In this document: piece by piece, positions 1,336-62,000 of the stretch | Layout of the letters: each line of letters begins with the position of its first letter | Position numbering within the stretch: position 1 is the first letter of the stretch | Source: Yuukianura sp. NJ FZ-2021 | Lineage: Eukaryota | Assembly: GCA_046563655.1 (NCBI GenBank) | Contig: CM102283.1 | Location: 2,728,001 to 2,792,000 of the forward strand | Length of the DNA stretch: 64,000 nucleotides | Direction of reading: 5' to 3' | Notes under the pieces: generated by a model | Databases searched by the model: none | Seen by the model: the letters and a program-made list of their open reading frames with translations, nothing else | What the model was told of the DNA's origin: nothing | Program-made: the position numbers and the translations under genes

Positions 1336-1462
1336 TAAGCCAAAAAGTGTAAACAGACAAGCGAATATGCCGAAATGGCTTATACACTAAAATAAATTAA
1401 AAAGAAATAACTTGCACAAAAGTTTACATAAAAAGGAAATAAAAGTAATGAAAGGAATACTT

Positions 1463-11636: not shown

Positions 11637-12759
11637 ATTTAAATTTTCGTAATTTTGAGATTGTTAGGATTATGAAATTGAAGGAAATGGAAGTCTCCGA
11701 ATATCTCAAACTCTAATGAAGAATCTTCACTGACAATTCACTTGCTACAGGTTTCGTCCTTTTATTCTTCCGAGTTCTTAACTGTTTCATTTTTTTAAAG
11801 CGTCCAGTCCAATGCTAAAATTAAATCCTAATTGTCGGATTTTAAACATCATTTTAAGTACTACTAATTCGATTTTAGTGGAACACCAATTCTATTGCAC
11901 ATTGAAGGTATCCAATAATTAACCAACTTTAGTACGCAAAAAATCATAAACTTGCCACAAAGTTATTGTTACAAAAGCAATGAACTTACTCTCATTGGAT
12001 TTTTGAATTATGGAATTGCACATACGAGACTACGCATAATTGCACAGTAACGAAATAACCTTTATTTTAATGCTAAGTAAAATTTAACATTGCGCGTCTA
12101 TAATTAGCTTCTGGATTGCTCATGAAAAGTGCGACAATTAACTTCCTTAAGAAATTAAAAATTTTTATAACTCCAAAAACCACGACATACAGTTAGTTTC
12201 ACAATTCAAATTTTAAACAATATTTTACCCATTCGTTTTTATTAACACAAAAACATTATTTCACTCCAACAAGACTTTCACGGTAATTATTTAGCTGGTA
12301 AAGGATAGTAAATTTCTTGGTTTCGATCTTTCTTTTTTTTCAAAAAGAAAATTATTTTGGCTTTTTTGTGTGCATAAAGTTGTTGATGTTTGTATTTAGG
12401 CTGCAGAATGGCGCGAAATTCAAATGAACCAACGCCATTTCTGAATTTGGACAACTACATCAATTGTTTTATGTGAATTTTGAAACTTACATGGTATTAT
12501 CTTGAAGTATAAGTTACCTTTGGTAAATGCATTGTGTTTTTAGATAAGATAAGTGTTGTTGTAAAGAATCGTATCATGTTTATACTAAAATAGTCAGTGT
12601 CACATGAGGTCACATGTTTTTACAAAAAGTTTAAGTGTTGTGTCAGGCAGGCATTAGCTATTAAGGAAAAATACTTTAGTGTACCTGTGTGCGTGACCAA
12701 ACGAGACGACATCGAAACATTTCTTATTTTGAAATTTGTTAGTTTCGAACATTTTCGAA

Positions 12760-15700: not shown

Positions 15701-15873
15701 GGGAGCCAATCAAAGCAGATCAAAAACCGTTCAAACTTTTTGAACTGAACTCAAATTCACTGAAAATGATTGATCCAATTGGAGAACGCATGGCATTTTG
15801 GGACCAGTGGAACCTCACTGACCTCTATGTGACCAAGGATCCACTTCATCCTGTCACAGCTACTCCACCATAG
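12760..15873 (+). CDS. Type II membrane-anchored carboxyl/cholinesterase, copy 2
   Basis: Same exon structure and motifs as 3363-7161 (GNSYG, GVNSGE, GAAHADEL). The last 100 aa are identical to copy 1. Confidence 0.93.
14822..15236. repeat. Expanded ~37-bp minisatellite in the esterase copy 2 intron
   Basis: Roughly 11-12 units of ccgaccacctaccacttctccgatcactt... This explains the spurious ORFs 14607..15257 (3' part) and 14930..15277. Confidence 0.9.
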
Positions 15874-23200: not shown

Positions 23201-23325
23201 CAGTAGGAAAAGAAGTAGATTCAGACATAACGACTCCAGCCACACCAACGTTCGGCAAGAAAATTAAGTCTGGAAAAAAACGAAACGTTTCAAATTGGAC
23301 GAGTTACTTCCACGGTAAAAACTGA
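17288..23325 (+). CDS. Secreted chitin-binding type-2 (ChtBD2/CBM14) cuticular protein, CPAP1-like
   Basis: Signal exon MKRLTTVSVLVVTLLLILQ (17288-17345), then exons ~19528-19589, 19862-20165 (Gln-rich), 21418-21580 (IPGTAGTDYP..FECKKQQWPGYYADTDARCQ) and 21778-23325 (VFWIC..AFLCPNGTLFNQQVFVCDWWFNVDC plus a low-complexity tail). Confidence 0.88.
19085..19375. repeat. Degenerate ~30-bp minisatellite in an intron
   Basis: Recurring aaaact..aaaatttg.tgcaactttgac units. Confidence 0.65.
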
Positions 23326-23782: not shown

Positions 23783-26700
23783 TCACCTACACCGTCCTCC
23801 TCGCTTTCTACCGCCACTTTCGTCGTCTTCTGCTTCAGCATTTGGTGGATACCGTTTGACCTTTGACTCTCCATTTTCAAAACTCGTTGTAAAAAGGACA
23901 TTAGCATTTGTGTACATTCCTGAAACCAAAATTTTTTCAAAAATTTCATGTTCAAACCTCACCAAAAACTATTTTTTGTCGCTTGTATGCTCATGTTCTT
24001 ACCATCTTTGAGCGAAACACAAATGAATTGTGTATTTTCGAATCTCTGTTTGATCAAAACGCCAATGTTTTGAGTATGGCTCAAATCCAAGGCAGCATCG
24101 ATTTCATCCATAACGTAAAACGGTGCTGGTTGAAACTTGCACAGAGACAAAACCAAGGCCAAAGCCACCAATGACCTTTGACCTCCACTCAGCTCCGTCA
24201 GCGATTCCTTCCAGACCCCACCAAGCTGAACATGAATCTACGATAAAAAAAAATCGCTGATCAAAATTTCGAAATCTTCAATTCAAAATCAAAAATTTTC
24301 AATTTCAAAGAGAATCAGAATCCTACCGTAACACCTTCATCCAAATTCTGATCATCCTGGACAGGATGCAGTTTGGCAGTGGATTCAGGCAGAAGTGTTG
24401 TCATCATTAGTCCAAGCTCTTCGTTCACAACTTTGTAGGCTTTGTTGACCAGTTTTTGCTGCAAACAAATACAAAAATCGAACAACGTTACTTTTCAAAT
24501 TTTCCTAATTTAAGTCTCATCAAAATTTTGATTTTTGGTTGTTTACCATCTGATTGTTGAGATACTCAACGGACTTCTCCAGCGACAACTTATTTTCTTT
24601 CAGAACTTCCAGACGAGCCTTTGCATCTTGTTCCATGTCCTGCGTCTCTCGCATTTTATCTTTTGCATCTGGATCAACGCGTTTGCGAAGTTCCTCACAA
24701 GTCTTCGTAGCCTTGTCCAAAGCGTCTTTACACTCCTGCAATCATAAGAATTCAAATTGAAAAACTCATTTTCAAAAAAAAAAAAAAATTCAATTTTAAA
24801 AACAACAAAATCAAAAACTGACCGTCCACTTCTTCTTCGGTTTCTCAATTTCATCGTACTTCGTAGTCAGCTTCAATTCAGGATGCTGCTGATGGAGTTC
24901 CTTCATGTATGCCTTAGTTGCTATCAAAAAACAATGATTTATAACACTACTGTATTATTCTATATTAATCGATTAATGCAACAAACGACTTTATGACAGT
25001 GCGGCTTACCTTGAATCTGGTCCTCCGTAGTTTTCATATCATTCTCCCTCGTGATTTTAGCTAAATCAATTTTATGAATTTGCTTTTTGAGTGCTCCAAT
25101 TTCAGCTTCGAGTTTTTCCGCCTCTTCGTCCCAGACTCTTCGTTCTTCCACAATTTCATCCAATTCTTTCTCTTTTTCTTCACAAGTGACCTTGATTTCA
25201 TCGTAAGCAGCTTTCTTCTTAACAGCATCACTCTGTGCCTCTTCCAATTCCTTCTCAGCCTTGTCGATGTCCCGCTTAAAATCATCCAGAAGAGCCTGAC
25301 GAGATTTCAAATCGGTTTCCATGGAGTCAAAAGTGGCTTTCTTGGCATCATACTTCTTCTGAGCTGCTTGAAGTGCTTTGGTCCATTTGGAAATGTCTGC
25401 TCTGACGATCTTGAGATTCTTCTGCGTTTCTTCTTCAAATCGGTCCACGAGTCGCTTCAGCTCAGTTCTCTCCTTGCCCCACTTCTCAACGTCCTTGCCC
25501 CATTCAGCCATTTTCTCTTTTCTTGTTTCTAAAAAAAAATTCCGCCAAGATGAAATTCTAAATTTCCAGTTTTCAAAATTCGAAAAACAGGCTTCACTTA
25601 CTTATCGTTTCCTTGAGCGTAGTGATTTCACCCTGCAGTGTTGCATATGTCGTACACTGCCTATTTTCAGTTGCATCCTTGAGTTGCCTTACGGCTTGGT
25701 CGTAACTCTTCAGCAGTGGGCCATTTCTAAAAAAAAAGAAAAAAGAAAAAGTTAAAAAGGAAAAAAGAAAAAAGTAGACGAGATTTCTAAAAATGCAGAA
25801 TTTTCAAAACAAAATCAATCTCTTCTGGCATACTTGTTGTAATGATCCATTTGAGATTTGAGATCCCGAAGTTTTGCTCGTAACTGGTTCCATTCGGTGT
25901 TGATTGGACCGAGCTGTTGACAAGCAGTGACCAATCGTCCAAGGTTTTTACGTGTTCCACCTTGCATTCCACCGTCCGGATCACAAACATCGCCTTTCAA
26001 AGTAATCGCCTTGTATTTCATCTGGTAAGCCACAATCTAAAAAATAGACAGCGAAAAATTCATTTACTGAAAGTTTCAATTACAAATCTAACTGAGTGGA
26101 GGTGATTTCGCGTTACCTTTGCAGTCTCCATTGTATCACACAAAACAGTTCGTCCAAAATAAGACGCCATTAAGTTCTGGTACTGGGGATCATATTCTAA
26201 AAGACTCAAGGCACAAACGGCTTTTCCTGCTCCAACTTTACTGTCCAATTCTTTCTGACTCAGCAGTCGGTCACTCCGTCGTACTTTAGATAGCGGCATG
26301 TACGTTCGACGATTCGCCACATCTGAAAGTAAACTCAAAGACGTTAGTCAAACGTTAAAAGGATTAAGAAAGTTAACTGTTTTAACTAACAACTTCACGT
26401 ACTTCCATGCTTGATGATGGCCCTCGCCGTAGCATCGGTATCCACTACTACAACAGAGAGACTTCCTCCAGCAGCGACCTCAAAAGCATCTCGGTACTGG
26501 CCTAAATTCGGAGCCGAAAATAGTTCATACAGACATCCACGCACTGAGCTTGTGTCGAAATTTGGCCCTGGAGGTCTACAAATTCAGAAAAACAAAACAC
26601 GTTTTTCAGTTTTAATGAGCTGTGCGGTTGTACTTGAAGCAGCGATTGGCCAGCAGCAGCGATACTTACGTGTAGTTAAAAGCCAGGTACTGGAACTCTT

Positions 26701-28566
26701 GAAGAAAGTTTTTGCGGTCTCGTTCCAGAGCGTTGAGACGCTGAGAAGCAGCGTTGTACTCCTGATCAGAAGTTGCGTATTGTTCAGGAGAAATTTTCAA
26801 TTTCCTGAGCTGATCATGTAGTTGATCTACTTTGGCCTGAGCTGCTTTGAATTCCGTTTCGATTTGCTTATCAGATGGAGTTTTGCTTAATTTCTTCTCC
26901 AACTCACGCAAACTCGCTTCTTCGTCTTTCAATAGACGCTCTTCATGGTCGTATTTTGGACTAATCTTGTCATACTGATCATCAGCATCTGAAAAATTAT
27001 GAAAAAGTGTCACTAAACTTAAAAACTGACTTGATTTTCATAAATCCTTAACTTACCGACTAATCGTTGACGCAAGTCATAAGTTTCGCCGTTCTCTCCG
27101 ACCATTTTTCCCGCATTAACTTCAGATTCTCTGAGACGGAAATGAGATGGGACAATACATGCATTAATTATGGGTTAATTAGTAGAGAGATTAATCAATT
27201 AGTTAGTTTTACGAATTACCGTTTTTCACATTCGGACAACTTGGTCTTGGCTTGTTCAATTTCGTCCTTGAGTGTTTGAAATTCGTTGACGAGATTGGAA
27301 CTTTTGGATCCATGTTCAGCAATTTGTTTTTCCTTTTGCGCAAAATCCTTCTGTGCTTTGGTCAGTTTCGTTTGTGCTGACTCTACCGTTTTCAAAGCAT
27401 CTTCATGAGCCAACTCACAACTTGCCAATTTCTTACTAATGTCCTTATGTTGCTTGTCAATTCCAGAATGTTTCTCGGTCACAATCTTCTCTGATTCCTT
27501 CATAATCTCTGCTCTTCGCTTCTTCTTATCCTCAATTTGCTGGTCCAATTCTTCAATCATCTTGTCATTGTCTTTTCCAGTATCTTTCAATTCCTGACGT
27601 TTCTCTCGTTTCTTGACTAGAACTTCCAAGTAGTGACCGAAAGCGGCTATTGCATACTCTTGAGCAAGTTTATGACGTTGATAGTCCGCGTTCTTGTACT
27701 CATGGTAGACCTGTAAGGCAGCTTCCTGTTGTCTCGCGGACGGAAGAATGACGTTTTGCAGTGTCTGAAACATAAAAACGAAAACGTTATTCAAAAATGG
27801 TGGGGGCAAGTTGAGAGATAATTTCTTACATCCTGGATTTGTTCCATCTGATTGTCCTTGTCACGAACATCCTGAAGTGCACGGTCTCGTTTCTGCTTGT
27901 AAGTAGTGGCTCCAACACACTCTTCAAGCATACCCAGAATTTCCTTGGGCTTCATATTGACAACCTTAGTAATCTTGCCCTGCATGATCATGAAGTTAGG
28001 ATTGTTAACGTTGAGCTGAACGGACTGGAAGAGATCTTGGACAACTTTTTTGCTGCTGGAGATTCCGTTCAGATGATACTGTTTACGAAAAAGAGAACGT
28101 TAAAACCAAATGATTTTTAATACAAACTGCTTCCTTGAAGTTGAACTTACCTTGCAAAGATTCCCTTCTTCAATGCTTCGTGAAACGATGATTTCGGAGA
28201 ATTGTTCATAGCCAATTGGAGCTCTACTTCGATCTGTATTGTCAAATACGAGGGATACGCAGGCCCTTTTGATACTTCCACCCTTGTTGATCAAGTCGTT
28301 CAGGTTTTGAGCACGTACCTACATAAAAATTAAGATTAGAACCTGCTTTTCTTACAAATTGAGATTAGCTTTTCAATTAACGTTAACAATGAGCGTACTG
28401 TTTGGAATGACGAAAGACCAAGAACGAAGATAATTCCATCCAAGATATTGGATTTGCCAGATCCATTGAGCCCAGTAATTGCATTAAAATGAGGATCAAA
28501 TTTTCCGATCTTCGTTCTAGTTTTGTAAGATTTGAAACCGTCCAGTGACACGTACTTCAGATGCAT
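23783..28566 (-). CDS. SMC2: Structural maintenance of chromosomes protein 2 (condensin subunit), divergent
   Basis: N-terminal [24 protein letters not shown] (Walker A), [24 protein letters not shown], coiled coils, hinge ([22 protein letters not shown]), C-terminal [37 protein letters not shown] (signature, Walker B, D-loop). Confidence 0.93.
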
Positions 28567-34691: not shown

Positions 34692-36897
34692 TTTGATGCG
34701 AAAACTCCCGCCTTTTTCTTTCTACGATCTTCATAAGCTTTTAGAGATGCTAGATATGTTTCAGTGATTGGCATTTGACATGGACGGAAGACGGAATTCG
34801 ACACACGAGTGTCCGTCTATCCGTCCACGTCATGAGAAAGACGCAGACGGGAAGACGGGATGTATGGACGAGGACCCTTCCAGAACTAATGTCTCATAAA
34901 TTACAGCTTCGCAAAAACGGCGGGGTTAAGCTTTAAGCCTAGGGATCAGAGGGGACCCTGGGAAAAAAGTCTTTGTGTCGTGTGGTCCTTTGTTGCAGAG
35001 GGGGGGGGGACTTAAAGGGTCCCCCTTTGTTGGTCCTTTGGCAGAAGCGTGCGACAGGATGTGTGGAAATCATAAATGAAAGTAAAGTTTCCCTCCAAAA
35101 CGAGTCCTTATCCGATTCACCACGTTGTTCTGGAGGGAGGGGGACACAAAGCAAAGGGGGGACTGTGTAGCGTGTACTCTAGACAGATGCTACACACTTT
35201 TTGGGGGTGCAGTGGTCCACTTACTATTGACATGGTAGGCCCATGTCAATGATGGGCCATGGAGGGGAGGGGGATAACGCCAGACGCCGTTCCGATAACT
35301 CTTGTGTTCTTCAAACCTTTGTTTGATCAAAGCCAAGCCAACAGTCCACGCTGTTTCCCTCCAAGTTCGCAGCGGATGTATCATCTCAGTCTCTTTCTTC
35401 CAGTGCAGAGTGGTGGACGTACTGACTTCTTAGTAAGTCTCAAATTCATCGCAATTAACAATTAGTAATTGTAGTTTGCCAATTGTCAAGTCATGGAGTC
35501 ACCGGAAGCAGCACTTATCTGAAAAAGATTACGGAAGATACGGGGTAAAGCCAGAGGCGCACATCAAGCACGGCGCGTAAGGTTTTTCGGCATTTAATGA
35601 ATGTTGAGCAATAACTAATCGTAAGTTTACTGTTCAAAGGTTAGTCGATTGACTTTGGTGTTTGACCTTACGGGTTATCTTAATGTTAGGTTATATTGAA
35701 TTACGGTTTAAATTGACATGTTACGAATTTGTTTCATTTCCTTTGTCTTCTAAGCACAAAGAAAGTGGATGAGCTCAATTCATTCCTAATAGAATCCCTT
35801 TGTTCTCTTTGAGCTTGTTTTTATAGGGATGAAGGACATGGAATAGGACGAAGTACAGATTAAACAAAGACGGCAACGGAAGACACTTCTAGGACTTCAC
35901 TAAACTTAAACTTGTAGCAGTTAACTTCTTCCAAGCAACGACACTCGAAGGTTACAAAAGAACGCGAGGACTGGATAATCGGACTTCTTTAGTAACGAAA
36001 ACTTCGGAGTTCTGGAGAATTTTCATCGGACAGAACCGCTATTTCTTTTGTGTGCTTTAGAGAGAATTGAGTAACTAATTTTAGTTACTGAATACTGAAT
36101 TACTCTAGCACCAAATGAAATCAGTGCTTCTGATTCCGTTTGAATAGCAACGGAAGCGGGGATATCTAGGAATTCATAAAGCATGGCACCACAGGCAATC
36201 CACATTTCTACAGTCAACCGCGTGAATGAATTGTACTTATCGAATTAAGTTGTTATCGTTATCGGCTGAAATACTTTATCAAGATAAGAAGTTCGAAATA
36301 AAAATGGTGACGCTTAAATATTGGCGGGATGACCAAAGAACGAGGGAATAGTGGGCACAGGCCTTAACAATTTTAGAAAAGAAAGTATATAAATAAATTG
36401 AATTAAATTTAATTAAAGTCTAAAGTTACTTTTAAAGTTAATTATGAATTGTAGTTAACTAAAAACGAAAAATTAGAAGAGAAAATGTTTCACGCTGTTG
36501 TTTTAAGATTTTATTGTGATAAGAAAATGAACGTAGCGCTATAATGCGGTGAGACAACTATCTGGCGCGCATTCGGAGTACCGCGAAATTTAAACGCAGT
36601 AAACTGTAAATTTTTTTTTTGCTTTTTTTAGGTTAGGTAAGTTTGTTTACTTCTCAGTTTTCGCTGGGATTGGGATTGGATCTTTCTCGATTGTCGATTT
36701 GATTTTGACCGCATAAAAGGTATTTCAAATATGTCATCTTTATCAGTCACCGTCGCTGCTATTCTTTGGACGATTAATAATTGAATTTCAATCAAGCCGT
36801 AACTGCGTCAATACATCAATCAATTACTTCCGCACTGAAAACTCGACCCCTGATAAGACCAGGACCACGTAACGTTTGTATTTCCAACGGACTAATT

Positions 36898-40777
<3,880 letters not shown>

Positions 40778-41699: not shown

Positions 41700-44600
41700 A
41701 TGGCTGCTCGTGGAGGTGGTGCCGGGAGAGGTCAAGGTTCGGGGAAGCCAGCGACAGTAGCCCCTCAACGGGTAAAAACTAACGTTTTGAGAGAACCATA
41801 AAACGAAAGTTGATTACAGATTTTACAGTGCCTTTGTAGTTATAAACATTGTAAAGCGGGTTACCGATGAAAAACTGTTGTTTCTAGGGATCTTTACCGG
41901 CGGGATACAGTGACTCTGATAATTCCGATGACGACAATTACTTTAGCCCTACTCTACCAGAACGACGTCCAATCCCGCTGAAAGTACTACCAACCCAGCA
42001 GATACCGAGTGTTGGTGCGAGTAGTACTAGCAGCAGGACTACCACTTATGATGATGATGACTGGTTCGTTCCAGTTCCAGCTTCAATTCCATCATCTGCG
42101 AGAGGCAGTAGTTCAATAATGAGTAGAGCAAGCGCTGCTGGAACTGGAGGAGGAGCTGCCAAGCTATCTGAGCAGCCTTGGCCAGAACCTGCTCCTACAG
42201 GATCCACTTTGAAGACAAACTTCAGCAACGCTGGAGGTATAACTCCTAAAGTGCGCGAGCCGTTACCAATGATTCCCAATATCAACCGACAACGTTGTAT
42301 TGCTGCAACCAGATCAATCAATGCAGTGTGGAGCAACGGTAGGAGTAAGTGCGCAGTTAGAATACTTAAAACTTTTTAGCAACATTTGAAATGTTATTAA
42401 ACTTGTTATTTACTTAACATAGGTGAACAAGGAGTTGACATCTACGCTTCTGGAATCGCTAAAACACTTCGGACGGAGTTCAAAGATGCCAGGAATCCAT
42501 ATGCAACTGCTCTTAACCTTATGCTCTACACCATTGATTTCTTCAAACCAAGCTACAAGGGTAGTTTGTCATTGGAAGGTAAGATTCAAACTTCGTTGAA
42601 TCTAATAGTTTATCCGCATAGGAATTTGATTTGTCAATTTTTATCGATTTTTTGGTTTAGTGATGAAGGAATTCAAAAAGTGGCTGTTGGATTCCGGTGG
42701 CTTGAGTAGCTATGAACGGCAGTTTTTGGATCTGGAGCTTCAGAAAACAGCTTTCTCTGTTGCTATGAAACAACCAAGTTCAGCTGTCATCAAGCTTGTC
42801 TTTGAGCTCTACTGCCTCAAGTCCATCGCTTCAACATTTGTTGAACCAATCAACAAATTTTGTGAAACAGGAGCTTACAAAGAGGTAATATTTACATTAA
42901 TCAACTAATCGTAAGTTAGAAAAGTAGAGTTACGGCACTAATCGCTCTTCTTATTACTTACATTGCCTAGGCTTGTCTGGCAGCTACGTATCTTGGACTT
43001 TTTACTGAATTTGATGTACACAAGTTCGTTATTCCGCTGATTCTGCAAAACCGGGAGCAAATTGCTTTGGATTACCTCGTTGGTTCTGTGGACAACCAAG
43101 ATGCCATGGTTAAGTTCTTTGACGACATTCTAGGAGACCCGACTCCTGTAAATGCTATGAGGAACTACGTTTTGTAAGTTTGCAACGTTAACAAAGCTTT
43201 TTAGTTAACGTTTACAGAAATTTGCAACGTTTGTAAACGCGTAACGTTAATGTTTAGCTTTGTAGTTTTAGTTGAAAAGTGAACCATCCTGGTTACTAAC
43301 TACTTGGGTTTGTTTTTAGTGCTAAGAATATTGACAACGTGATGTTCACCAAGTTAGAAGTGAAGGCCATGGGCAAGCAGCTGGAACGATTGAGAAGTAA
43401 GTTGGGCATTGACCAAACTACTTGCCCAAATAACAGCAGACGTAAGAAGGGAGCAGCACTGCGACACCTCATGTACCGCAAGTACATGTTGAAGGACGAC
43501 ACGATGTGTAAGAATTTCAAACATGTTTAAGTCCAGAACTTTTTAAAAACTAGTAAGAATCTTACAAGTTTTCAAAATTTTGAATTTGAACTTTTAGCGG
43601 AAATGGGCTTTGAAGAACTGTTGGACGACCTTGTGGCAAAAGACGAAGGATTAATTGAAGAAGCTTTGGCCCAATTCCGAGAGTATGTTGACAGCACCGC
43701 AGCGGCTAAATTTGCCATCCGAAATGCCGTTCCACTACACAAAATTACTTTCGACGTCCAAGTACGAATGAACGAGCTGAATCCGAATGTTGTCGTGCTG
43801 CCAGAGAAGGGAACTGTCCAACAGTGGGAACAAGACTGGGACTTGGCACCAGTCGCTCAGGCCAAAACGCGACTATTTGGAGGTAATTTAGAAGCATCTT
43901 TAGGAAATTGCTGACCTTAACCTGAACGTTGACGTTTTGCTTTAGTTGGACAGCAGAAAAGCGAAAGGTCACTGACCCCGAGTCTCCAAAATTGTCCAAA
44001 ACCTGGAATTTTTCCTCCTGCACATGAAAAAGACAAGAGTGTACGCTTCTCTCCGAGTGCTCATCGTTCCAGGTCACGGTCAAGGTCACCCTTGCGTGAA
44101 CTTGTGTCTCTCCGCTCTTCGCTGATGGACTCAACCGATGATTCGGCCAATGTGTACAAATGTCCTATTCAAAGTACCAAAATTCATGTGCTGTATACTC
44201 CTGAAATGATTAGTGATTTCATTGAAGAGTTGGAAGAGGCTCAGAAAGCTCAAGCTGACCAGCCTTTCCCGTTTGTCGTCGTTGGTTTTGATTCGGAGTG
44301 GAAACCGATGCTTGGAACATTTGGAGTCTCGTTGATGCAAATTGCTCTACCCACCAAGATTTACTTGATTGACACCTTCGAACTGAAGCAGACCGAACCA
44401 AATTCTGAGTGCTGGACGCTTTTACTGGAGAGATTTTTTGAAAATGAGGTGAGTTTTTCTTGTATTTTCAATTTTTTGAATTATCATTTTTGATAAATTC
44501 GAAATTTTATGTTTCAGAAAATTTTGAAGCTGGGAGTTGCTATTATGAAGAACGACGTACCGATGTTGGCCAAAACAACACCAGTATGGGCCAACATGAT

Positions 44601-46228
44601 CAAAGCATTCAAGGGCGTGGTTGACCTGTCACAGTTGGCAACCGATCTGGGCAGAGCCAATTCACAAATATTCCAGAACTTTGTGCCCGGTACGTAACTA
44701 AAAATATTTTTTTTGAAAAACTTGAATTTTTCGAAAGCAGTTTTGTTGTTATGTAGCAAAAGCGCCACAGGGATTATCGCTGAGTGACCTTGTTCTGGCT
44801 TTCACTGGCTTACGAATGAAGAAAGACGAGCAATTTTCCAACTGGGAGAAGCGACCACTCCGAGAGGCTCAAATTCTGTATGCTGCGGCTGATGCCTATT
44901 GTCAGCTAGACGTGTTCAACGTTATGCAAAGTCGAGCAGAACGAGCTGGACTCAACTTCTTGACGACAGTGTTGAGAGTAGTAGAGAAGTGGGAGGGACA
45001 AGTTGACAAAACTTTGAAAAAAATGGCGCCAAATAATTCTCTTCGAGATTTTATTGCAAATGTGATTCATGGACATTTAAAAATTCCTGTTCCCGTCGAC
45101 TCTCCGTTTCAAATGCCACGCTCACCATCGGACATCAAACTCATTTGTGACAATGTGTTGGCAGGTACGGACTGAGGTTTTCAAAAATGGAACATTTCGA
45201 AAATATGAAGTATTTTGAAAAAAAATTTCCAAGGTTAGTGGTTATAACAATTTTTTGTTGTTGTACATTCAGGAATCGGAAGACTGCTTCGTATTTGTGG
45301 AGTTGATACTGTGGTGTTGGAGAATCAGGAATCTTTTAAGCGCTATATCGACATCGCTGCTGAAGATAATCGCTGCGTCATTACAACTAAAAACACATTT
45401 TCACGCGTTAGTTACTTAGAAATTGGAATTTTGGCTAACTTAATTCTAAACCTTGTGATTTCTTAGACTTTTACTACAAGCTGTACACTTTTACTTTCGT
45501 TTTCAGATTGCACCGTTCCTTCCGGATCGTCATTGCTACGTGGTCAACAACCCGGTTAATCCAGTGGAGAGCCTAAAGGACGTCTTGGGATACTTCAACA
45601 TTGTCGTCACCGATGTGAACATGCACACGCGATGTCAGGTTCGAAATTTTGAAAAATTTAAACCGCTGGAGAGTGACTCATTTTCATTCTCATTTTTTTT
45701 TTGTCAGAGTTGCAACAGTAACGAATTTGTCAAAATCCGATCCGAGCTGCTGAAGGAGCTTTACATGGACAAGTTTCCAGAGGAGTTGCGTGGAAAGCAG
45801 CAGGAGAAGTATAGCGGTTTGATGGAAATTGATGAGGATACGATCGCTGCTAATTCGGCTGTAGGTGCCGATGCTGGTGAAAATAGGCGACGCTGGACGC
45901 TCATTCCAGAAAATACTTTGGTTACTGAGGGGCCCTCGGACGTTCTACGGACCAAACGAGGTGAGAAAAATTCCAGAATTTCCAAACAGGTTTCCACTTA
46001 GGCAGGAATGTTGAATTGAATGCTTAAAATACTGTTTCAGGAGCCGTGGTGGGCGTGAAAGGAATTTCAATGGGTATTGTGAACAAGGTTGAGTATATTT
46101 ACGCCTGCAATGTCTGTGGAAAGTGCTATTGGCCGAACCAGAAAACTCCGAAAGCATCCGATGCTGCTCAACCTGATCCGATTTTCATGGCTGACGACGA
46201 CGACGAACAAGCGGCTGATCTTGAGTGA
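41700..46228 (+). CDS. EXD3: EXD3/Mut-7/Nibbler DEDDy 3'-5' exoribonuclease with Mut7-C domain
   Basis: ExoI GFDSEWKP, LMQIA, ExoII KLG..KND, ExoIII SNWEKRPLREAQILYAAADA. Mut7-C: ICDNVLAGIGRLLRICGVD..TRCQSCNSNEF..CNVCGKCYW. Start MAARGGGAGRG was inferred from an in-phase exon chain. Confidence 0.9.
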
Positions 46229-50000: not shown

Positions 50001-53000
50001 ACCAATGCACCACCCGCAGCAATTCCATTTCTGCTTTACCAAAAATGATATTTTTGGTTTCGTTAAATATTTTGTAGGAGCAACTAAAGCGTATAATTTT
50101 GAAAGATTAATTAGTTGGTTATATGTTAAGCTAAGTTAAGATTGTTTTGAAACTTTGCTCACTTTGTGTCGAAACGTAATTAATTACATGCAATTTTTTT
50201 TCGATGAACGATGTTCCTTGGTCCATTTTGAGGCTCAGTGATTAACTGATTGTTTGAAGTTAACAATGAGATGGAAGGTTAAATTGAAGTTTTTGGGCAG
50301 GGCACAATGACATTGCTCAACAAGGCAACAATAACAGTTTACAACTCCTGCGTCTGCGTACTTATACTGCAACACCTTAAATGGAAGTTTGATAATTTGA
50401 ATTTAGGCGGCATAAATTTTGGAGTTCGAAACTCAAATTGCCAAGAGAATCCTCGACACTTTTTCTCTAGTCTGTAATTTCAATGCTGTTAAAAAGTTTT
50501 AACTGCGGGTGTGCCCTTGGCTTAAGCCCAGTTCACACATAAACTGCGTTCATAAAATACGAAATTACGTAAATAAACGCATGAAAATGTAGTAAAAATG
50601 TAAGAAACGAAAAGTATGCAAAAACTTACTTAAAATGAATGGTGTGTTAAAAGTATATTATTAAGGTAATTTTTTACAAATTGCGGGAAAATGGAAAAAT
50701 TAACAGATTTCAACACAGGAGTCAATTTTTTTTTTTGCAAAAAAAGAAAAAATAATCTACTGTGTATGTGTTAAAATAGTGAAAAGGCGTTAGTTTCACA
50801 GTTAAAATTTTTCATCTTTTACTAACGTTACTTTTAAGTTTGCAGTTAGACTTATGTTAGCGTCACTTAACTTTAATTAGCATCAACGTTATTGTTTTCA
50901 TTAAAAATCAACACTTCTGTTACAAAGAGTGTTGTACACGGGCTATTAAGTTTTTGTTTCATTCGCGAAACTTTCACTTTGCAAAACCCCACTTTTGCAT
51001 AGAGGTGTAAGGGAGATGCAAATTTTCTCATTCATAAATGACAGCTTGTAACACACCTTTCTTAAGAGTCGTACATTAACAGTTGTGCGTATATGGAAAT
51101 TTGAATTTGTTGCGAAAACATCTCACTCAGAAGCAACAAAAGATTTGTTTTCACTTTTTTTTCTTTGTCATTTTCATGAATGAAGTGAAAAACAAGTTAT
51201 TACGAGATTCGAAACCACAAAAGAATCGCGCGGTTTCAAAAATAAGGGAAGCACATTGCTTACCGTAAATGCTCTAATGCAAGCGCGTATTCTAATATAA
51301 GCGCATACTCTAATGCAAGCGCGGTTTCAGCGGGGGCAAATTGCGATATAAGCGCGGTAGCTAACTTGAGTTTAAAGCAGAGCCTAGAGCAAAGTGACAT
51401 CATCTGTTTAACTTCTATGTTGCTAATTTGACTCAAATCAAAATGTACCACTTAAATACAAGTTTTAAAAATGGTGTAACTAAAATACGATCGTTTGATC
51501 TCAGTTTTAAGTTAAAAGTGGTTCAGTACGCTTCTACTAATACCACGGATGGTAACGCAGCTCACTTCGGAATACACCGAAAACAAGTCTTCAGTTGGCT
51601 GAAGCAAAAGGATAAAATCGGTAAAAATTTAACTAATTTTACCTTTCGACTCGAGAAAACAACTTTCTAAAGAAGCAGACAAAATGGTTTACGATTGGAT
51701 TTTAAATCAGCGCACCAACCAGCAAAGTGTCTCCTTCAAATCTATTCGTGTGAAAGCTAGGGAAGTCTACTCTGCAGTGCTTCAAACAAACGAATTTCAG
51801 GCCAGCTTGGCTACAAAAATTTATGAAGCGCCATGACCTCAGTTTGAGAAAGAAAGCATCGTTGGCTCAAAAAGATCCAAATTCGTTATTTGAGTAGCTT
51901 GTCGAGTTCGTCATGTACACTTCCAACCTCGCTGTTACGAATAAAATTTCCAACCCAAATATTATTGCCATGACTGGAATATTTTTTGACATGCCAAGTA
52001 TTACTACAGTGGGCACATGTCGGGGAGGCTTGAAGAAAGCAACAGTGACACCAGCGACGAATGGGATCACAATTAATTGAATTTTGGTTCACTTAAAACT
52101 TATTAATTATTGCGGTAATAAATAGTGTTCTAATAGAGGCGCGTCCGAAATGTCGAAAATTCTTATAAGCGGCGCGCTTATATTAGAGCATTTACGGTAT
52201 ATAATCTTGCAAATATTAATGAAACAAAAAAAAATTTGCTGTTATTTCGAAAATTCAATTTCTTGGAATTTTAATCTCATTTGTTATGTTCAGTAAGGTT
52301 GACCTTATGTTGACCATTGACCTTTTCAAAAGTTTTATGACTTTCCAAATTGTTGTGCAACAAGTTCTTGAAAGTAAATTAATTAACTAAAATTTAATTT
52401 TTTTTTATGTAATTCGATGTGACAACTCACAACCAGAGATGTAAATTCGCGGTTCGCCGAACTTTAGGGCGCGAAATTTTCGAACCGCGCCCGAACTGCG
52501 CCCGCGCTTTGGGTCGGCGCGGTTCGGTGCGAAGAGAATTTTTCAGGGTGCCAGCGCAGTTCGGGTCGGGTCGACGAGGGTGCAAGCGCGGGTCGGGTCG
52601 GTTCGATGCAATTTTTTGTCAAGCCAAGCGCAGTTCGGGTCGGGTCGAGAGGGTGATGGGCGCGGTTCGAAAGTTCGGCGAACCCATCATATGTTTGTGG
52701 CCGGTTCGGCGAACCCATATCCAGCCTAGATATATAGACATATCCGCAGGGCTGCCTGTTTATATCTATCTTGCATTTGAATTCTCTGTGCTCCCGCCTC
52801 CGTGTTGAAAGACTAAATGATCATTAGAGCTGCCAAAAATATGTGTAAATGAACCAATGAAATAATTTCCATCAAAACTTGATAGAATAAATCTAAATTT
52901 TTTCTGAAATGGTAAATGAACAACAACCTAGGGTGTTGTTCTCCATTTAATAAACTAACTGCGATGCGATATGTTACCGCAATATTTAATACATTAATTG

Positions 53001-56000
53001 GGATATATTGCTGAGCTGATCAAAACTAAAAGAATGAAATTACCTTAACATCTACATATGCAATTTAAGCAATTAATTATTGTGACTTTAGAATACATGT
53101 GCTTTATTAACGCTTCAGTTTCAAAGTCTTATCCTCTTTAATACCTTCATAGCCAGAGCAGAAAATTTCCACAAATTTAAAGAATTTCACCTTCACCGGA
53201 CGGTTAGTGACCATCCTCTAGCCCTATGAACTTCGCATTCATATTTTGTTGTGATTTTTTTTTAAATTATTTATTTCTGTGATTCCTTTTGAAAAAAAAT
53301 ATTCGTACAAGTTCATTATCAAAACCCAAGGAACATAATAGAAATAAGTTGAAGAGAGTATGACAATTTTTTTAAATATTTTTTTCGGAAGAAAATCGTT
53401 ATTTTTTCTTTAATTTTACCGCCTCATGAGAGGCACCACATCAACTTAATATAAATTAACTAAGTATAAATTTAAATTTTATACTAGAAGTTAATTTTAT
53501 ATCAAGGGGAATCACGACCACTTAATACAAATTAACTAAAGTGTAAAATTAATTATTATTTTTTGTATTTTATGTTTTGCTTTAAATTAATAAAAAACGA
53601 TTTAAATAAAGTAATTAGAAAAGTAATTCTGCGATAAATTGAATCAAAATTTCATTTATCTCCGTGTGATTTTGTGGATAATTTTTCACATGTTCGAGTA
53701 TTTTATACGGAATATCCACAAAATTATTACATATTTCCCGAAAATGCCTCCTTGTTGCCAAATTCTGGGAATATTTTGCTAAATACTTTTTATATTTTCT
53801 TCACGAAATATGTTTAAAAATATGTAATATGTAAGAAAATATGTTTTGCCCTACGAAATTATGAAGAACTAAATGATTTCTTGCTCATATAATGGAATAG
53901 AGAGGACATCAGAAAAATATTTTCTAAAGAGCGACTCTATTCTATATTTAAACATTCCATATTTTCTTTAAGAAGCATTGAAATATTTACGTATTTAACA
54001 TTAAGGGCATGGGGAAAAAATAAATATGTACTATTAGAAAAGTCCAGCATATTACTTTTTTTTAACGTTGAGTGAATGTAGAGAAAATATTTTTTTCATC
54101 TCTGGATATTACAATTTTAATTGCCACTGCTTAATACTTTTTTTTATTTTCGATGGCATACTACTGTGCATGAAGTTCAAATGAATTCGATTATGTCAAA
54201 TCAAAATAACAATTTACAATTCGAATCGTTAAATATTACACCTAAATATTAAGATGTAATATCAACAAGAAACAATCAAACTTTGTTCATATAATCTTGA
54301 ATGGTTCTAGTAATACTAAGCGCGGGTCGACTCATTTCCTAAATTTGGGCGCAGTTCGATTTGATTTCGCAGTTAGGGCGCGGTTCGAGCGAAGTTCGCA
54401 AGTTCGAGGGCGCAGTTCGGTGCGGTTCGAAGAAAAATTTGCCGGGTGCAAGCGCAGTTCGGGTCGGGTCGAAGTAAGTGCAAGCGCGGGTCGGTTCGGT
54501 TCGATGTGATTTTTTGGAAGGACAAGCGCAGCGCGGTGCGGTTCGCTGGGGGTGCAGGCGCGGGTCGGGTCGGGTCGAGAGAATTTTTGCAAGGCTAAGC
54601 GCAGTTCGAAAGTTCGGCGAACCGGATATTTACATCTATGCTCACAACGAGTTTTTTTTTGACAACTGCTTTTTTATTATCTTCGGAGCCCTTGATTTTG
54701 AAATTTCTTGAAAGGAATGTCAATGTTGACGTGTTAAAAAAATCGAGTGATTGTTTCAGTTTTTTCTTACGGTTTAAATTTTCCCACGATTTCTATTTTC
54801 ACTGTTTGCCTCCAAATTCAATAACACTTGTTTGAGAAGAGAAAAAATTTACAACGTGCGAAAATTTTCAAAGCAAAAAGTTATTAGCGAAGTGACGAGG
54901 TGTTTGTATAAAGTTTCTCCTAAGACAAACATTATGATATACGTACGTGTTATTGTTATGTCTGTCTGGTGTAGTGTTTCACTTGTTAAGAAAATTTAAA
55001 TTTAGGTCAACGATCTCACCACTGTACTAACTCTACGCGTCTGTGCCTGTCAATGACATGGCGCAGACGCACTTAAAGTTTTTGATACACAAAAGAGAAA
55101 AATTAAGTTTTTGACAAACAAAAGGAAGATTCTGGTTAGTTATTTTGGAAAGTTTAATTTTAGTGCCAAACTGTTTTGAAAGTTTTTAAAGAAAATGATA
55201 CCCGCCTTTTTCAAATTTTGAAATTTAAACATAACCGCCTTGGCCATTTCGGTACGGCAAGGTTTGAGAGTGTTGTGGCGCATAACTCCGCTGGGAGGGC
55301 GGAGCCATGGAGTACTGAGACTGTGATTGGATGTCTTGTTGCGAATGAAATCGCTGCGGACTGAAGCGATTCGGAACGTAAGGATCAGCAGCAACGTGTT
55401 CCCGCTCCGGAGCGACATTTTCATGCAAATGAGCAGCAACGTGTTGCCGTTCAGGAGCGACATCTTCACGCAAATGAGCAGCAACTACGAAATTGTAAAC
55501 AAGCGCTGCCACAATGCCACCCACGAATGGTCCAAACAATGGTGCTACCCAGTAGTGCTCTTCGGTAGACCTGGAAAATTTCAAATTTTGAAATTTCATT
55601 TTCAAATTTTTGAAAATTTCAAATATGTTAGTCAACTTACGTTCCAGGGGTATAGAGAAAGACGTCACTTGCGTCGAATCCTACCGTGATGGCCATCAGT
55701 CTAGCACTAATGTCACGAGCTGGATTCAAAACGCCGCCGGCGTTTACACCAAACGTACAGCTGATTCCGACCACAGCAATGGCAAAGAACGGTCCGTACA
55801 TGAATTTCGGAACTTTCATGTTTCGCGGGTCAATGACCGCCAATCCAGCCAAGCACAACAGGGCAGTTCCAATGACCTAGAGGAAGGCAAAAGGTCATTG
55901 ACCTTTGACCTTTCAAAATTTGACCTTTGACCTTAAAAAATTTACGTTTACCTGATCTGCAAAGGCGATTCCCATTAAAGCTTTAGGCATCGGTGCAAAA

Positions 56001-59000
56001 GCTCCAGCCAAAGGTGCACATCCTAACCAATCCAAGTGACCTTCACAGTGGCTCGGGATCAAAGAGTCTGTTAGAATACACATGTCAAGGTCAAAGGTCA
56101 AAAATGTAGAATCAAAAAGGTCAAAGGTCATCGCAGGTCAAAGTTAGATTTTACCCATGTAGAGGGTGTAGGCTACGCCAGATCCAAAGTAAGCCCCAGT
56201 GAATTGTGCGCAGACGTAGACTGGCACCTTGGCCCAACTCGTAGCTCCAGAAATTGCGGTGGCAATTGTAAATGCCTTTAAAATTACAATATTGATAAAA
56301 ATTAATTAACTTTTGAATTAACTATTTCATTTATAAATTAATGAATTCTTACTGGATTAACGTGTGCACCACTCAATCCTCCGAAAACTGTGATTGCCAC
56401 TAGTAGACCAATGGACCCTCCAAGCATCCCCATCAACCAGCTTCCAAATTCTCCATATGTTCCAGCCATTACCGTAGCTTGGCAACCAGCACCAACAACG
56501 AACAGCTAAAATTCAAAATTCTGAAAAATTAAAAACCGAAAACCCCAAAATTCAAAATTTTGAAAACCTACCATTAGTACAAATGTTGCTACAAATTCTC
56601 CAAGGGCAGCAGTTAGATATTTATTTTGAATCGAAGCATTTGCTCTTAGAAAATCTTGTAATGGTGTTACTCCCCTGCGGTTACCCATTTTCAAAAACCC
56701 TCCAAAACCCAAATTTTGAGAAAATCAAAATGGAAACTTTTTTTTTTCTGAAAACTGGATTTTGGAAGCGTAGATGCGTATTTGAAGACTAAGAGATGAA
56801 GGCCTCGTATCATTTTGAGTGATTTCATTGAATTGTGGCTTATCATTTATCTGGATTAAGCTACAGATTAAGAGCCTACTTAACACATAAACCCAAATGT
56901 TGCAAAAATTGTACAAATCGAAAAAACATAAGCTGTTTGCTAAAAAACGTGTGAACATCAAAAATTATGAACTGACTAGCAAAGTTTTAGTTTTCTAATC
57001 TTCAGTTGATATGTTGCGTCACGTTTACCGTCACTTCATATCTTGGACAAGGATTTACGACTAGTTACTTCCTCCAAATTTTAATCCTTAACTTCATAAA
57101 CTTTTTTTCTAGAAAATCTGAAGGTCACGAGGTCATAAATTTTTGTGATTTTGATTGACAGTGGTGATTCAGGTTCAAGTGCGATACGCGTGTTTTGCAC
57201 AAATTTGAAAAATTTTACAAAGAAATTTGCCGCTAATCGAACGCGTGTTATTCAAAACTCAATGGTTTAGTCAAAATGTATTCCCCACTTGTATTAATGT
57301 TTAATTGCTGATCAAGTTTTGATTAAATTTCAGATCGAATATGTCATTATTGTTCGTTATCGTTTGTACATGCCTTTGTGTTGTAGTTCATTTTGTTCCC
57401 AGTGTAGATATTGATTTGATTTTTGATGCTTCAATCCTGGAAACGTCTTAGGTTGAAGTAAACCAGAAATAGATCTAACCTCACCTTTATGCGACACACA
57501 ATTTCCACATAAACTTTAGCCGTTTTGAAATTTGGAATTTTGCTTGTAATATACTCTAAAAAGAGTTTCGGGCATTGTTACGATCCTTTGAAAATTGGAA
57601 GTAATTTCAAACGGACCTTTTAGAAGAAAGTGCCAATTACAATTTATTGTATCTGATTTGATTCACAAGCTGTGAGTGCATGCCATTAGACCAAAGAAAT
57701 TAGGTAGGCAGGAAAGAGGTAAGCAATATATTTAGGTGATTTTTATGAGCTAATGGGTGCTTAGGTACAAGTTAGAACCTGTATTGGTGGTGTTTCATAA
57801 GAAATATTACTCAGCTGTCCTATGTACTCAGACCCGTCATCATACGTGTACCAGATCTTAGTCGTCTGATCAAACGGAACCCTACCGAGGAACTTGTACC
57901 TTACGTTCTCGAAATCTCGACCGGTATGCATGATTCCCGAGTAGTGTAACAAATCCTTAGGATGGTCCGGTTCAATCCGAACTCCAACCGGCACGGGATT
58001 GGGTGGAACTTGTCCAGTTTTACCGAGGTCCACGTATTTATAATTTTGGCCCGTAAGAATTTCATGGTGGTAACCTTCGCCCACAACATTTTCAACTCCA
58101 CCGTATGGATAGACACATTTCCATTGGTCGTTTTCCCGCCAAGCCTTTCCAGGAATAAGAGTCATGCCATATTTGTCTGTTTTAAGAGCCACTCTGCAGA
58201 CATACTCGTCGCGTTGCTTCATCGTTTCTGTTCTTGGAACGGCGATAAACGCTTCGCTGATGTCTGCGATCTTGGAGGGATGTTTGAACCCCTCGTCAGA
58301 ACACTCTGTGCCACTGCGACCTTTAGGTTTTAAATTCTTTGGACAGTTTGATTTGGACATTAGAGCAGCCATCTCTTCAACGGTTATTAACACTGGCTTG
58401 ACTGGAAATAAACAAGAACGTCAAGATTTTTGTAAGCTAGACTACAGTGTTGGTAGATATCCACTTTCACGGCATTTCATCCACGGCGGATATCCAGTGG
58501 AAGAAATGGACGAAAGTGGCGGAGCTTTGCCCTCGGGATTTCCATTAATTGAATATAAAAAGCTGGAAAAATGAAAATATGGTAACAAAGACGAAGTAAA
58601 TATCGCTTCTGAAATAAGTTTTACATAATTAATTTTAACGCCGAAAGAAAAGCTTTTTGACACATCATTTTGTAATTTAAAATTTGGATTGTCTTGAATT
58701 TCGCGCTAAATTTTGGATTTCTTCCGTCCACTAAAAGTTTCGTCCATTTCGGGTTCATTTCTTCCAGTGGATATCCATTTGAAGTGGCAATTTAAGCCAC
58801 TGGACGTTTAGTTATCCATCAACACTCCAAACTAGACTTCACGATTCAACAACTAAAAAAACATACTATCTTATTGTTCCTTAAGAACAAGAGTAAATTT
58901 GAATTCAACCGCCAGTTTTTTTATAGCCGGGTTAGAATGAGTTAAAAAATGGCCGCTGAACACAAATTCAAACTTACTCTCCTTTTTTAAGGAACAAAGC

Positions 59001-62000
59001 GGTACCTGGACTGTCTTCGGTTTTTACTACTCTCTGACCTGGTGGAGCATCCGAACTGCCCCCTTGTGCTTTAACTACAGAATAAATTAAATTTTAAATA
59101 AAAAAAATTCAAAAATTGTTCGCTGTGTTATAAAATTGTGAACCCACGAATAGCTGACGCCAACATGATGCATGTCGCGAGTAGATTAAATGTTTTCATT
59201 CTCCAACGTTGACTAAATCAATTACTCTACGATTTCAAACTGTAGGTAACAAGATGTACGTGTTTGTGTTTTGCAGTGACCAACTATGTACAATACCGTT
59301 ATTATTTTCGTATCATCGGTTCACTTTCACTTATTCAAGGCCCTTTAAATCATAAAATTATCAAGAATTTCTCATTGTCTCTGCCAACAATAACATTTTA
59401 ACATTGAAACTTCCTTTAAAATTTAAATTATTTAATTTCCCGGTCCATGAGCGACTCTTACACTTTGGTATTGAACAAAATTAATTTCAAGTTAAGAAAT
59501 ATATGAAATAAATGTTCCCCAAAAATGTTTTGATTTGTGGGTACATGTAGAAGCGACCGATTCACTTCAACCTTAGACGTTTCTAGGGGTGACATGACGC
59601 ATTAAAAATCAAGTCTACAAGCAAGATAAATAGAATACTACAAGTAAAACCGGAAAAAAAGAGAATATATCCAATGTCACGTTGAATTACTCACACCTCA
59701 GATCGAATATGTCATTATTGTTCGTTAACGTTTTTGCACAGAACTTTATATTGTAACCTAAAGTAACCTTAAATTTATTTCAAGTTTACCTAATTGCATC
59801 GCGTAACCTATTATACAGATTACCTCATTTCTGCTTAAGTAATTTTTTTTGAGCTAATGGGTGCTTAGGTGCAAGTTAGAACCTGTATTGGTGGGTAACT
59901 ATAGGACATATTACCCTGCTGTCCTATGTATTCATACCCGTCATCATACGTGTACCAGATCTTAATCGTCTGATCAACCGGAACCCTACCGAGAAACTTG
60001 TACCTTACGTTCTCGAAATCTGGACCGGTATGCATGATTCCCGAGTAGTGTATTACATCCTTAGGTTGTGGGTCCGGTACATCCCTAATTCCAACCGGCA
60101 CGGGATTGGGTGGAACTTCTCCATGTTTACCTAGGTCCTGAAATCTATAATTTCGGCCCGTAAGAATTTCGTAGTAGTAACCTTCTGGCAAAGTATTTTC
60201 AACTCCACCGTATGGATATACACATTTCCATTTGCCGTTTTCCCGCCATGCCTTCCCGGGAATAAGTGTGTGGCCATATTTGTCTGTGTTAAGCAACACC
60301 CTGCAGACATACTCGTCGCGTTGCTTCATCGTTTGTGTACTTGGAACGGCGATAAACGCTTCGCTGATGTCTTCGATGAATCCGGGATGTTTGAACCCCT
60401 TGTCAGAACATTCTGTGCCACTGCGACCTTGAGGTTTTAAATTTTTTGGACATTTGGATTTGGCCAGTCGAGCAGCCATCTCTTCCGCGGTCAATTTCAC
60501 TGGCTTCCCTGGAGATAAACAACAACGTCAAGATTTTCGTAAGCAGTGTTGATGGATATCAACTTTTCCGACATTTCATCCATGACTGGATATCCAGTGG
60601 AAGAAATGGACGAAATGGATGAATCCAAATGGGGCGGGGCTTTACTTGCGGGACTTGCGTTTATTTGTATACAAACAAATAGAAAAGTTAAAATACAGTA
60701 GTACAAAAACAAAGTAAATAAATAATTACGTTTAAATTAATTAACTGATTTCAACAGTGAAAGGGAAGTTTTTCTTTGCAATTATTTTGTTTTTTTTTAA
60801 TTTCGCGCTAAATTTTTGAGTTCTTGCATCCACTAAAAGTTTCGTCCATTTCGGGTTCATTTCTTCCAGTGGATATCCAGTGGAAGTGGCAAGTAAGCCA
60901 CTGGCCGTTTAAGCAACCACCAACACTGTTTGTAAGCTAGACTAGACCTAGTGTGTTGATGTCTAACATAGTGTCTTCATAGTGTCTTGCTCCCTAGGAA
61001 CAAAAGTAAATTTGAATTCAGCCGCCAGTTTGTTATAGGTAGCCAAGAAGTCGCGGTTGAAAACAAATTCAAAGTTACTCTCGTCCTTTAAGGAACAAAG
61101 CGGTACCTGGACTGTCTTCCGTTTTTGTTACTCTCTGACCCGGTGGAACATCCAAATTGCCCCCTTGCACTTTAACTACAGAAAAAATGAAATTTTAAAT
61201 AAACAAAATGCAAAAATTGTTCGCTTTGTTGTAAAATTCTGAACCAACGCACGAATAGCTGACGCCAAAATGATACACATATCGAGCAGTTTAAATGTTT
61301 TCATTCTCCAACGTTGACCAAATAAATTACTCTGCGATTTCAAACTGCAGGTGACAAGTTGTACTAGATGTTTGTGTGTATGCAGTGACCAACTATTTGC
61401 AATAACATTATTGTTTTGGTATCATCGGTTCAGTTTCACTTATTCAAGGCATTTTTGATCATAAAATTATGAAGAATTTTTCATTGTCTGATTGCCAACA
61501 ATAACATTTTAACATTAAAACATTCACACTAACATTAACTTAAGACAAGTGCAAAAATGTTTTGATTTGTGGGTGCATGTAGAGGTGACCTATTCACTTC
61601 AACTTAAGACGTTTCTAGGAGCGACCCATTAACAATCAAATCTACAATTGAAAAAAAATGGATATTGTATCTAAAGTTACGCTGAATTAGTCACACCGAT
61701 CTCTGACAAAAAAAAAATAATTCCGAAATCAGATTACTAAGATTTGAGTTTTTGACGAAAGTGTGCTAAAAGTTAACCTAATCTTAAGATTAGGTTAGAC
61801 ATGTAAATTTAAGTACAAAGAGGAAAATTTCTGCACAATGGAAAATTGTAAATTTAGTGCATGTGTAAGTTTCTGAAGGAAAAAGTGCATTGAAACCTAA
61901 CGGTACAATTTTTAAAGCGTTGCATTGCAAAAAAGTGTGACAATTTGGACTTTACCGTTAATGAAATTAGGCCGTACTTTACTGTTCTACAAAACGAAAA

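Follow-up and report, generated by a model that had tools for sequence, protein, structure and literature searches.

Why should an animal aquaglyceroporin carry the selectivity filter of a plant silicon channel? The question is raised by a gene on the minus strand (positions 56688-55225) of a 64,000-nucleotide stretch of the Yuukianura sp. NJ FZ-2021 genome (assembly GCA_046563655.1, contig CM102283.1, positions 2,728,001 to 2,792,000; this whole stretch is hereafter called the window). A preliminary description of the locus had read, at the aromatic/arginine (ar/R) positions H2, H5, LE1 and LE2 of the encoded aquaglyceroporin (Glp), the residues G-S-G-R, which define the plant NIP-III channels such as Lsi1, and had proposed convergent evolution of a large-solute channel in an arthropod. 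The present analysis indicates that, above all, the aromatic gate has been lost throughout the springtail Glp lineage, and that the match to Lsi1 is one state of that loss. We assign a probability of about 0.6 to the window protein being a broad-selectivity, wide-pore channel that resembles human AQP10. The aromatic-free, probably wide filter on a Glp backbone is retained from the original proposal, whereas its Lsi1-specific part appears overstated.

The filter residues read as first described. The asparagines of the two NPA motifs are residues 89 and 220 of the window protein, with 128 residues separating the motifs, as had been counted, and the ar/R positions located from these asparagines are G69-S208-G217-R223 in an open spliced frame (Table 1). 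The published residue equivalences of Lsi1 and GlpF agree with the NPA-based offsets used here (PMC8556265; this and the other works cited below were covered as partial texts). In exon 5, the alignments to AQP3 and AQP10 are gap-free over H5, LE1 and LE2, with S208 on the H5 glycine of Glps and G217 on the tyrosine of AQP3; in exon 2, the alignment to AQP10 is gap-free from the H2 site to the NPA motif and sets G69 on G62 of AQP10. The phmmer alignment of exon 2 to GlpF contains a gap that sets W48 on G68 rather than on G69, a glycine either way. A one-residue slip is unable to restore an aromatic H2 because the segment between W62 and F80 is devoid of aromatic residues, and misregistration of this position was rejected. 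The concern that an alignment to known structures might place an aromatic residue at H2 or LE1 is addressed by the sequence alignments to AQP3, AQP10 and GlpF, in which glycines of the window protein occupy these sites.

The gene comprises six predicted exons that form a 362-amino-acid frame, open from ATG to TAA, and all five introns are short (66-87 nucleotides) and of the GT-AG type. The splice model is supported because it is colinear with two uninterrupted homologues from short contigs (58% and 52% identity in the core) and because intron positions are shared with a paralog elsewhere in the genome: introns 1 and 4 coincide with paralog introns in alignment column and phase, and one further intron is one column off. 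Assignment to the MIP/aquaporin superfamily rests on two NPA half-helices, six hydrophobic peaks in the spliced protein and matches of the Pfam MIP family to four of the five tested exon-containing open reading frames, all under the curated cut-off; exon 1 and intron 1 gave only chance-level matches in the PDB.

Within the superfamily, the backbone is that of a Glp, as the NPARD and DPRN motifs had suggested. The Froger-type signature of Glps consists of an aromatic, an acidic, a basic, a proline and a non-aromatic residue, and the window protein has Y129, D224, R228, P258 and L259 at these sites. An aspartate follows the arginine of the second NPA box, which is also a Glp trait, as are the long loops C and E of the protein, and the NPA spacing falls in the range of 121-150 seen in full-length rows of the springtail clade described below. 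The top PDB matches of exon 5, as well as those of a database relative, P0006, are AQP3, AQP10 and AQP7. The canonical Glp filter has aromatic residues at both H2 and LE1, where the window protein has G69 and G217; these aromatics are usual in Glps but not general, AQP10 being without either. Among the traits of NIP-III/Lsi1 channels, the protein possesses G-S-G-R and lacks the Thr65/Thr181 pair, the 108-residue spacing and plant-NIP descent. With respect to descent, the window protein nests among Glps in trees that included no NIP sequence, and P0006 is by sequence closer to AQP10 (E-value 1e-43) than to NIP2-1 (1.4e-12) or AQP4 (5e-10), in agreement with the earlier view that the resemblance to Lsi1 is convergent. 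A structure model was made for P0006, which is 51-52% identical to the window protein and has the same G-S-G-R filter (predicted local distance difference test score 83, predicted template modelling score 0.77). The model has an aquaporin fold, matching AQP3, AQP7 and GlpF with Z of 34.0-34.7 and root-mean-square deviation of 1.6-2.2 over 238-257 aligned residues (for Escherichia coli GlpF, 34.0, 2.2 and 246, respectively), and matches Lsi1 more weakly (28.6, 1.9 and 211). The Glp backbone also sets the protein apart from entomoglyceroporins and Prip-like channels, in which the H5 histidine of an AQP4-related backbone is replaced by a small residue. An origin by horizontal transfer, either from a bacterium or from a plant NIP, is rejected in view of the introns, the Glp backbone and the springtail relatives.

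Relatives were gathered by a search with exon 5, which yielded two close relatives, followed by searches with one of these and with a clade profile. A first tree was built from 167 of 169 rows, two rows under 200 amino acids being left out; another, from which the filter columns were removed, comprised 55 rows and 274 columns, with SH-aLRT/aBayes support values. Twenty-two sequences, including the window protein, form a single clade (100/1) on a stem of 0.54 substitutions per site. All named members (four of the 20 database rows) come from springtails, namely Allacma fusca, Folsomia candida and Orchesella dallaii. Within an eight-member subclade (94.1/1) that contains no named member, the window protein is joined with P0001 and P0002 (97.8/1).

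Throughout the clade, aromatic residues are absent from H2 (G 10, V 6, S 2 and I 1 in 19 sequences, the site being missing from three fragments) and from LE1 (G 7, T 6, A 4, S 3, L 1 and V 1 in all 22). The same condition thus holds in CAG7722136.1 (A. fusca), XP_021962874.1 (F. candida), CAL8069188.1 (O. dallaii), P0001, P0002 and P0005-P0008; the named proteins read S-A-A-R, V-A-T-R and I-A-T-R, in contrast to the G-S-G-R of the window protein, and that of Folsomia is V-A-T-R. H5 is variable (A 11, S 4, G 3, N 2, I 1, L 1), LE2 is arginine in 21 of the 22 members, and the glycine that precedes LE1 (G216 in the window protein) is present in every one. G-x-G-R is found in seven of the 19 complete members and the exact G-S-G-R in two: the window protein, whose two nearest relatives have G-N-G-R, and P0006, which lies beside G-A-G-R and S-S-A-R sequences. 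Hence G-S-G-R is less special than it had seemed, given that the aromatic loss is clade-wide and the serine already gives way to Asn in the two nearest relatives. Similarly, the altered loop C motif, AGAFAPMP, reads as given in the preliminary description, but its Thr-to-Pro change is common to 14 of the 22 clade members.

Beyond the clade, 18 of 146 readable rows (155 in total, a sample biased to the top hits of P0001) lack F, W or Y at H2 and LE1, among them gecko AQP10 and proteins of prawn, millipede, snail and fish; four rows of this biased sample have only G, A or S at all three variable sites. Judging from these sequences, aromatic-free filters appear repeatedly but not commonly among animals, and the springtail clade, as sampled, has become fixed for them. 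The smallest filter seen, G-G-G-R, belongs to the Glps P0137 and P0188, which one tree places weakly beside the springtail clade (68.8/0.957) and others place elsewhere. Among the characterised crustacean Glps, H5 is variable and the barnacle proteins retain an aromatic H2 (PMC5513457, PMC4539701). Routine occurrence of the filter in characterised arthropod Glps, which would have told against the preliminary proposal, is accordingly not seen; small aromatic-free filters are, in turn, routine in the uncharacterised Glps of springtails.

The long stem and the multiplicity of filters within the clade (for example, V-A-T-R, I-A-T-R and G-I-A-K) are features that might be expected of a drifting, low-activity or water-only channel that has lost its glycerol role and keeps its filter under weak constraint. 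However, the frame is intact, both NPA motifs, the arginine and the Glp signature sites are retained, LE2 and the preceding glycine of LE1 are nearly or fully invariant, and the aromatic residues have not returned in any of the 22 sequences, so that we regard drift as improbable.

Two further pore positions bear on the comparison with Lsi1. The fifth filter residue, in transmembrane segment 1 (TM1), is Val42 in the window protein; glycine, the residue of most outgroup rows at this site, is found in only one of 19 clade members, a pattern which suggests that a larger fifth residue is a compensating fill behind the lost aromatic. The presumptive equivalent of Lsi1 Thr181 is Gly180, which is exclusive to the window protein, the other 21 members having Val, Ile or Leu. 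The exact four-residue match, together with the invariant glycine before LE1, could be taken to indicate a dedicated silicic-acid or metalloid channel, convergent with plant Lsi1 and with gAQP_Hex3 of the glass sponge Vazella pourtalesii. GlpF with the Lsi1 filter (G25T/W48G/G191S/F200G, spacing 132) gains germanium and arsenic transport, wild-type GlpF (W-G-F-R) does not pass germanium, and NPA spacing has been argued not to be critical for silicon (PMC8556265). The sponge protein is a Glp that retains the three glycines, the serine and the arginine of Lsi1 and has hydrophobic replacements at both threonines (PMC12978542); G-S-G-R in an animal Glp is therefore not the novelty it had been taken for. 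Against such a specialised channel, Ser208 is replaced by Asn in the two nearest relatives and by Ala in most others, and Val42 corresponds to the T65V mutation of Lsi1, which lowers both germanium and arsenic transport, whereas T65A, T65G and T65S are neutral (PMC8556265). The metalloid lead of the preliminary description is accordingly favoured by the engineered GlpF and weakened by Val42. Moreover, human AQP3, AQP7, AQP9 and AQP10 all transport silicon, three of them within the range of Lsi1 (PMC4551902), so that silicon also passes human Glps with a canonical filter and the motif is dispensable. Among the 15 papers listed (of 19) on Collembola, silicon, cuticle and silica, no title or abstract opening hinted at silicification in springtails. 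Because H5 is labile and the fifth site is Val, selection for an Lsi1-like silicon filter is disfavoured, and we consider a dedicated silicon or other metalloid channel very improbable. By analogy with the Lsi1 mutants, P0006, with Ala at the fifth site, would be a better silicon candidate than the window protein.

We favour the interpretation that the protein is a tetrameric channel from the Glp lineage of springtails and that the two aromatic walls of the ar/R constriction were probably already missing from the common ancestor of the sampled members. Since H2 and LE1 are Gly and H5 is Ser, Arg223 would be the sole bulky residue, and the outer constriction is predicted to be broad and of low selectivity, like that of AQP10. 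The fifth residue in TM1 is exposed to the pore when H2 is glycine (PMC8556265); Val42 would accordingly face the pore and make the wall more hydrophobic than that of Lsi1. The best reading, by analogy with characterised relatives, is a wide pore that would be permeable to urea and, in vitro, to metalloids: it is predicted to conduct boric acid, arsenite, urea and water, probably also silicic acid, and glycerol with a looser fit. The everyday role would most likely be the movement of urea and of small uncharged organic osmolytes. The exact agreement with Lsi1 would then be incidental, one state of a small residue that varies freely.

A wide pore is favoured, besides the clade-wide aromatic loss, by two analogies. 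The AQP10 filter, with T35/G62/G202/I211/R217, is wider than that of Lsi1 (PMC8556265), and fish Aqp10.2 in which either aromatic residue has been replaced is more permeable to urea and boric acid and still lets glycerol through; the gain is 2.7-3.5-fold for an ancestral construct and 20-26-fold for the bichir protein (10.1101/2024.03.16.584933). Three considerations weigh on the other side. Selectivity is not fixed by pore size alone (10.1101/2024.03.16.584933). The engineered GlpF that carries the Lsi1 filter transports less glycerol than before (PMC8556265), and glycerol may, by extension, not be the main substrate of the window channel. Finally, the retention of Gly at both H2 and LE1 in seven of 19 members may point to selection for one larger solute as opposed to relaxed selectivity.

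The last point leads to the explanation that springtail Glps were selected for solutes larger than glycerol, such as C4-C6 polyols or inositol serving as drought and cold protectants, with glycerol partly taken over by Prip-like channels that lack the H5 histidine. Springtails accumulate larger polyols, and the clade-wide loss of both aromatics together with the gain of a larger TM1 fifth residue is compatible with this scenario. So is the probable Ile at H5 of the classical-type paralog L021 (the best-looking splice, one of four candidate joins). Glycerol transport has been found in a collembolan Prip-like channel whose H5 is Val (PMC4518291). The glycines, however, are equally compatible with relaxed selection. 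Furthermore, the NPA region, which also limits solute size, is canonical in the window protein. On balance, this explanation is possible although unlikely. A more elaborate version, in which springtail Glps were remade for larger solutes, be it bigger polyols or soil-water metalloids, with G-S-G-R arising at least twice and with the resulting natural allelic series (G-S/N/A-G-R, S-S-A-R, V-A-T-R) providing, among its members, a route for silicon, boron or arsenite that a land arthropod uses physiologically, is in our estimate unlikely as a whole.

Compared with characterised channels, the favoured AQP10-like reading finds its nearest likeness in human AQP10 (PDB 6F7H), the best PDB sequence match of P0006, which combines Gly at H2, a non-aromatic LE1 and an exposed fifth residue, and passes silicon. 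The two sets of pore residues differ (V42/G69/S208/G217/R223 in the window protein), and the trees separate the proteins, with no sign of common descent of the filter. With rice Lsi1/OsNIP2;1 (NIP-III; PDB 7CJS, 7NL4) the window protein has in common G-S-G-R and the Gly-Gly pair before the second NPA motif, but it belongs to another branch of the family, with the aspartate after the arginine, a long Glp loop C and a spacing of 128 instead of 108. E. coli GlpF shares the fold and the Glp signature, and its Lsi1-filter variant is the closest tested analogue, with Thr at the fifth site where the window protein has Val (PMC8556265). In gAQP_Hex3, both threonines of Lsi1 are replaced by Ile, compared with Val and Gly in the window protein, all being non-polar; the sponge, whose sequence was outside our trees, silicifies, and the channel is discussed as paired with ArsB pumps (PMC12978542). 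No match to Pfam Silic_transp or ArsB was found in the Yuukianura genome by an exon-wise search, which is insensitive, having missed the MIP gene of the window, and does not demonstrate absence. The springtail Glp filter is not described in the texts covered by full-text literature searches, arthropod aquaporin papers and an animal-wide survey, a coverage from which most subscription-only articles are absent; such sequences may be present in the supplementary trees and alignments that accompany PMC4518291 and PMC8167128. Springtail Glps as such are already known and G-S-G-R in an animal Glp is already in print; the clade-wide pattern is more interesting than the single match.

The genome encodes at least two Glps, a lower bound given that the exon-wise MIP family search missed the window gene itself. 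The second one (L027:3860-5478, minus strand, G000:C7 near 5.94 Mb) has seven exons encoding 330 amino acids, is 45% identical to the window protein, and combines the filter S-S-A-R with NPV in place of the first NPA. A short Trp-containing motif in the tail after TM6 is shared by this protein and P0002, P0005-P0008, P0123, P0124, P0126 and P0127, and is possibly a trafficking or regulatory site; it is absent from the window protein and P0001, the window protein thus differing from most of its relatives. The tail of the window protein contains a tandem duplication that encodes two 15-residue His/Glu-rich units. Classical-type aquaporins form a tandem cluster (L020-L022, G000:C3:10.64-10.67 Mb), in which three examined genes keep His at H5 and one, L021, probably has Ile. 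For another aquaporin gene (L024:4241-5214, minus strand, G000:C3 near 11.27 Mb), the sole candidate splice gives a putative Glu at H5, which would be unusual as an acidic residue of the filter, and Gly at LE1.

Upstream of the Glp gene lie two DM9-repeat genes within a tandem duplication, and these neighbours provide no functional lead. A GC-rich, short-unit repeat element of about 300 nucleotides with inverted ends is present in two copies (79% identical over 150 nucleotides) and is probably a non-autonomous transposon. Elsewhere in the window, an apparent tandem duplication carries a carboxylesterase gene, and ordinary genes occupy positions 21326-45175 (Table 1).

Table 1. The aquaglyceroporin gene and other features of the window
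Feature	Position	Strand	Remarks
Exon 1	56572..56688	minus	N-terminus and first half of TM1, conserved Glu31; intron 1 position matches the C7 paralog
Exon 2	56353..56505	minus	Remaining TM1, TM2, loop B to Asn-Pro of the first NPA
Exon 3	56155..56275	minus	Ala of the first NPA, then TM3
Exon 4	55952..56067	minus	Loop C with altered motif, Pro156 versus Thr of canonical Glps; alone without Pfam match
Exon 5	55641..55876	minus	TM4, TM5, loop E with the second NPA, then Arg-Asp
Exon 6	55225..55570	minus	TM6 and hydrophilic C-terminal tail of about 80 amino acids
Gly69	56416..56418	minus	H2 (first NPA Asn minus 20)
Ser208	55760..55762	minus	H5 (second NPA Asn minus 12)
Gly217	55733..55735	minus	LE1 (second NPA Asn minus 3)
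Arg223	55715..55717	minus	LE2 (second NPA Asn plus 3)
Val42	56497..56499	minus	Fifth filter residue; equivalents Lsi1 Thr65, GlpF Gly25, AQP10 Thr35 (PMC8556265)
Gly180	55844..55846	minus	Presumptive Lsi1 Thr181 equivalent, anchored on the TM4 Gln/Glu via residue numbers in PMC8556265
Tail duplication	55384-55473		45-nucleotide tandem duplication, 87% identical
DM9-repeat genes	57761-58420; 59865-60527	minus	Two genes in the tandem duplication
Tandem duplication	57330-61625		Period about 2.1 kb, 85-93% identical
GC-rich repeat element	52434-52729; 54309-54640		Two copies
Carboxylesterase duplication	670-7161; about 10300-15873		Apparent; carboxylesterase with N-terminal membrane anchor and small Cys-rich neighbour
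Simple-repeat stretch	near 14700-15250		Long; in the second carboxylesterase copy
Peritrophin-A protein	21778-23325		Chitin-binding
SMC-like coiled-coil gene	23959-28099	minus	Labelled by sequence reading; no Pfam match
RecQ-like helicase	36781-40777		DEAD/DEAH
3'-5' exonuclease	41888-46001		

The significance of these observations lies in the clade as a whole. Filter selectivity has so far been studied with engineered mutants of GlpF, Lsi1 and Aqp10, and the aromatic-free Glps of springtails constitute a natural mutant series on one backbone for selectivity toward glycerol, urea, boric acid, arsenite and silicic acid. Springtails, in particular Folsomia candida, are standard test animals in soil toxicology, for which boric acid is a reference toxicant, and a wide-pore Glp is accordingly a concrete candidate for the route by which boron, arsenite and protectant polyols enter these animals.

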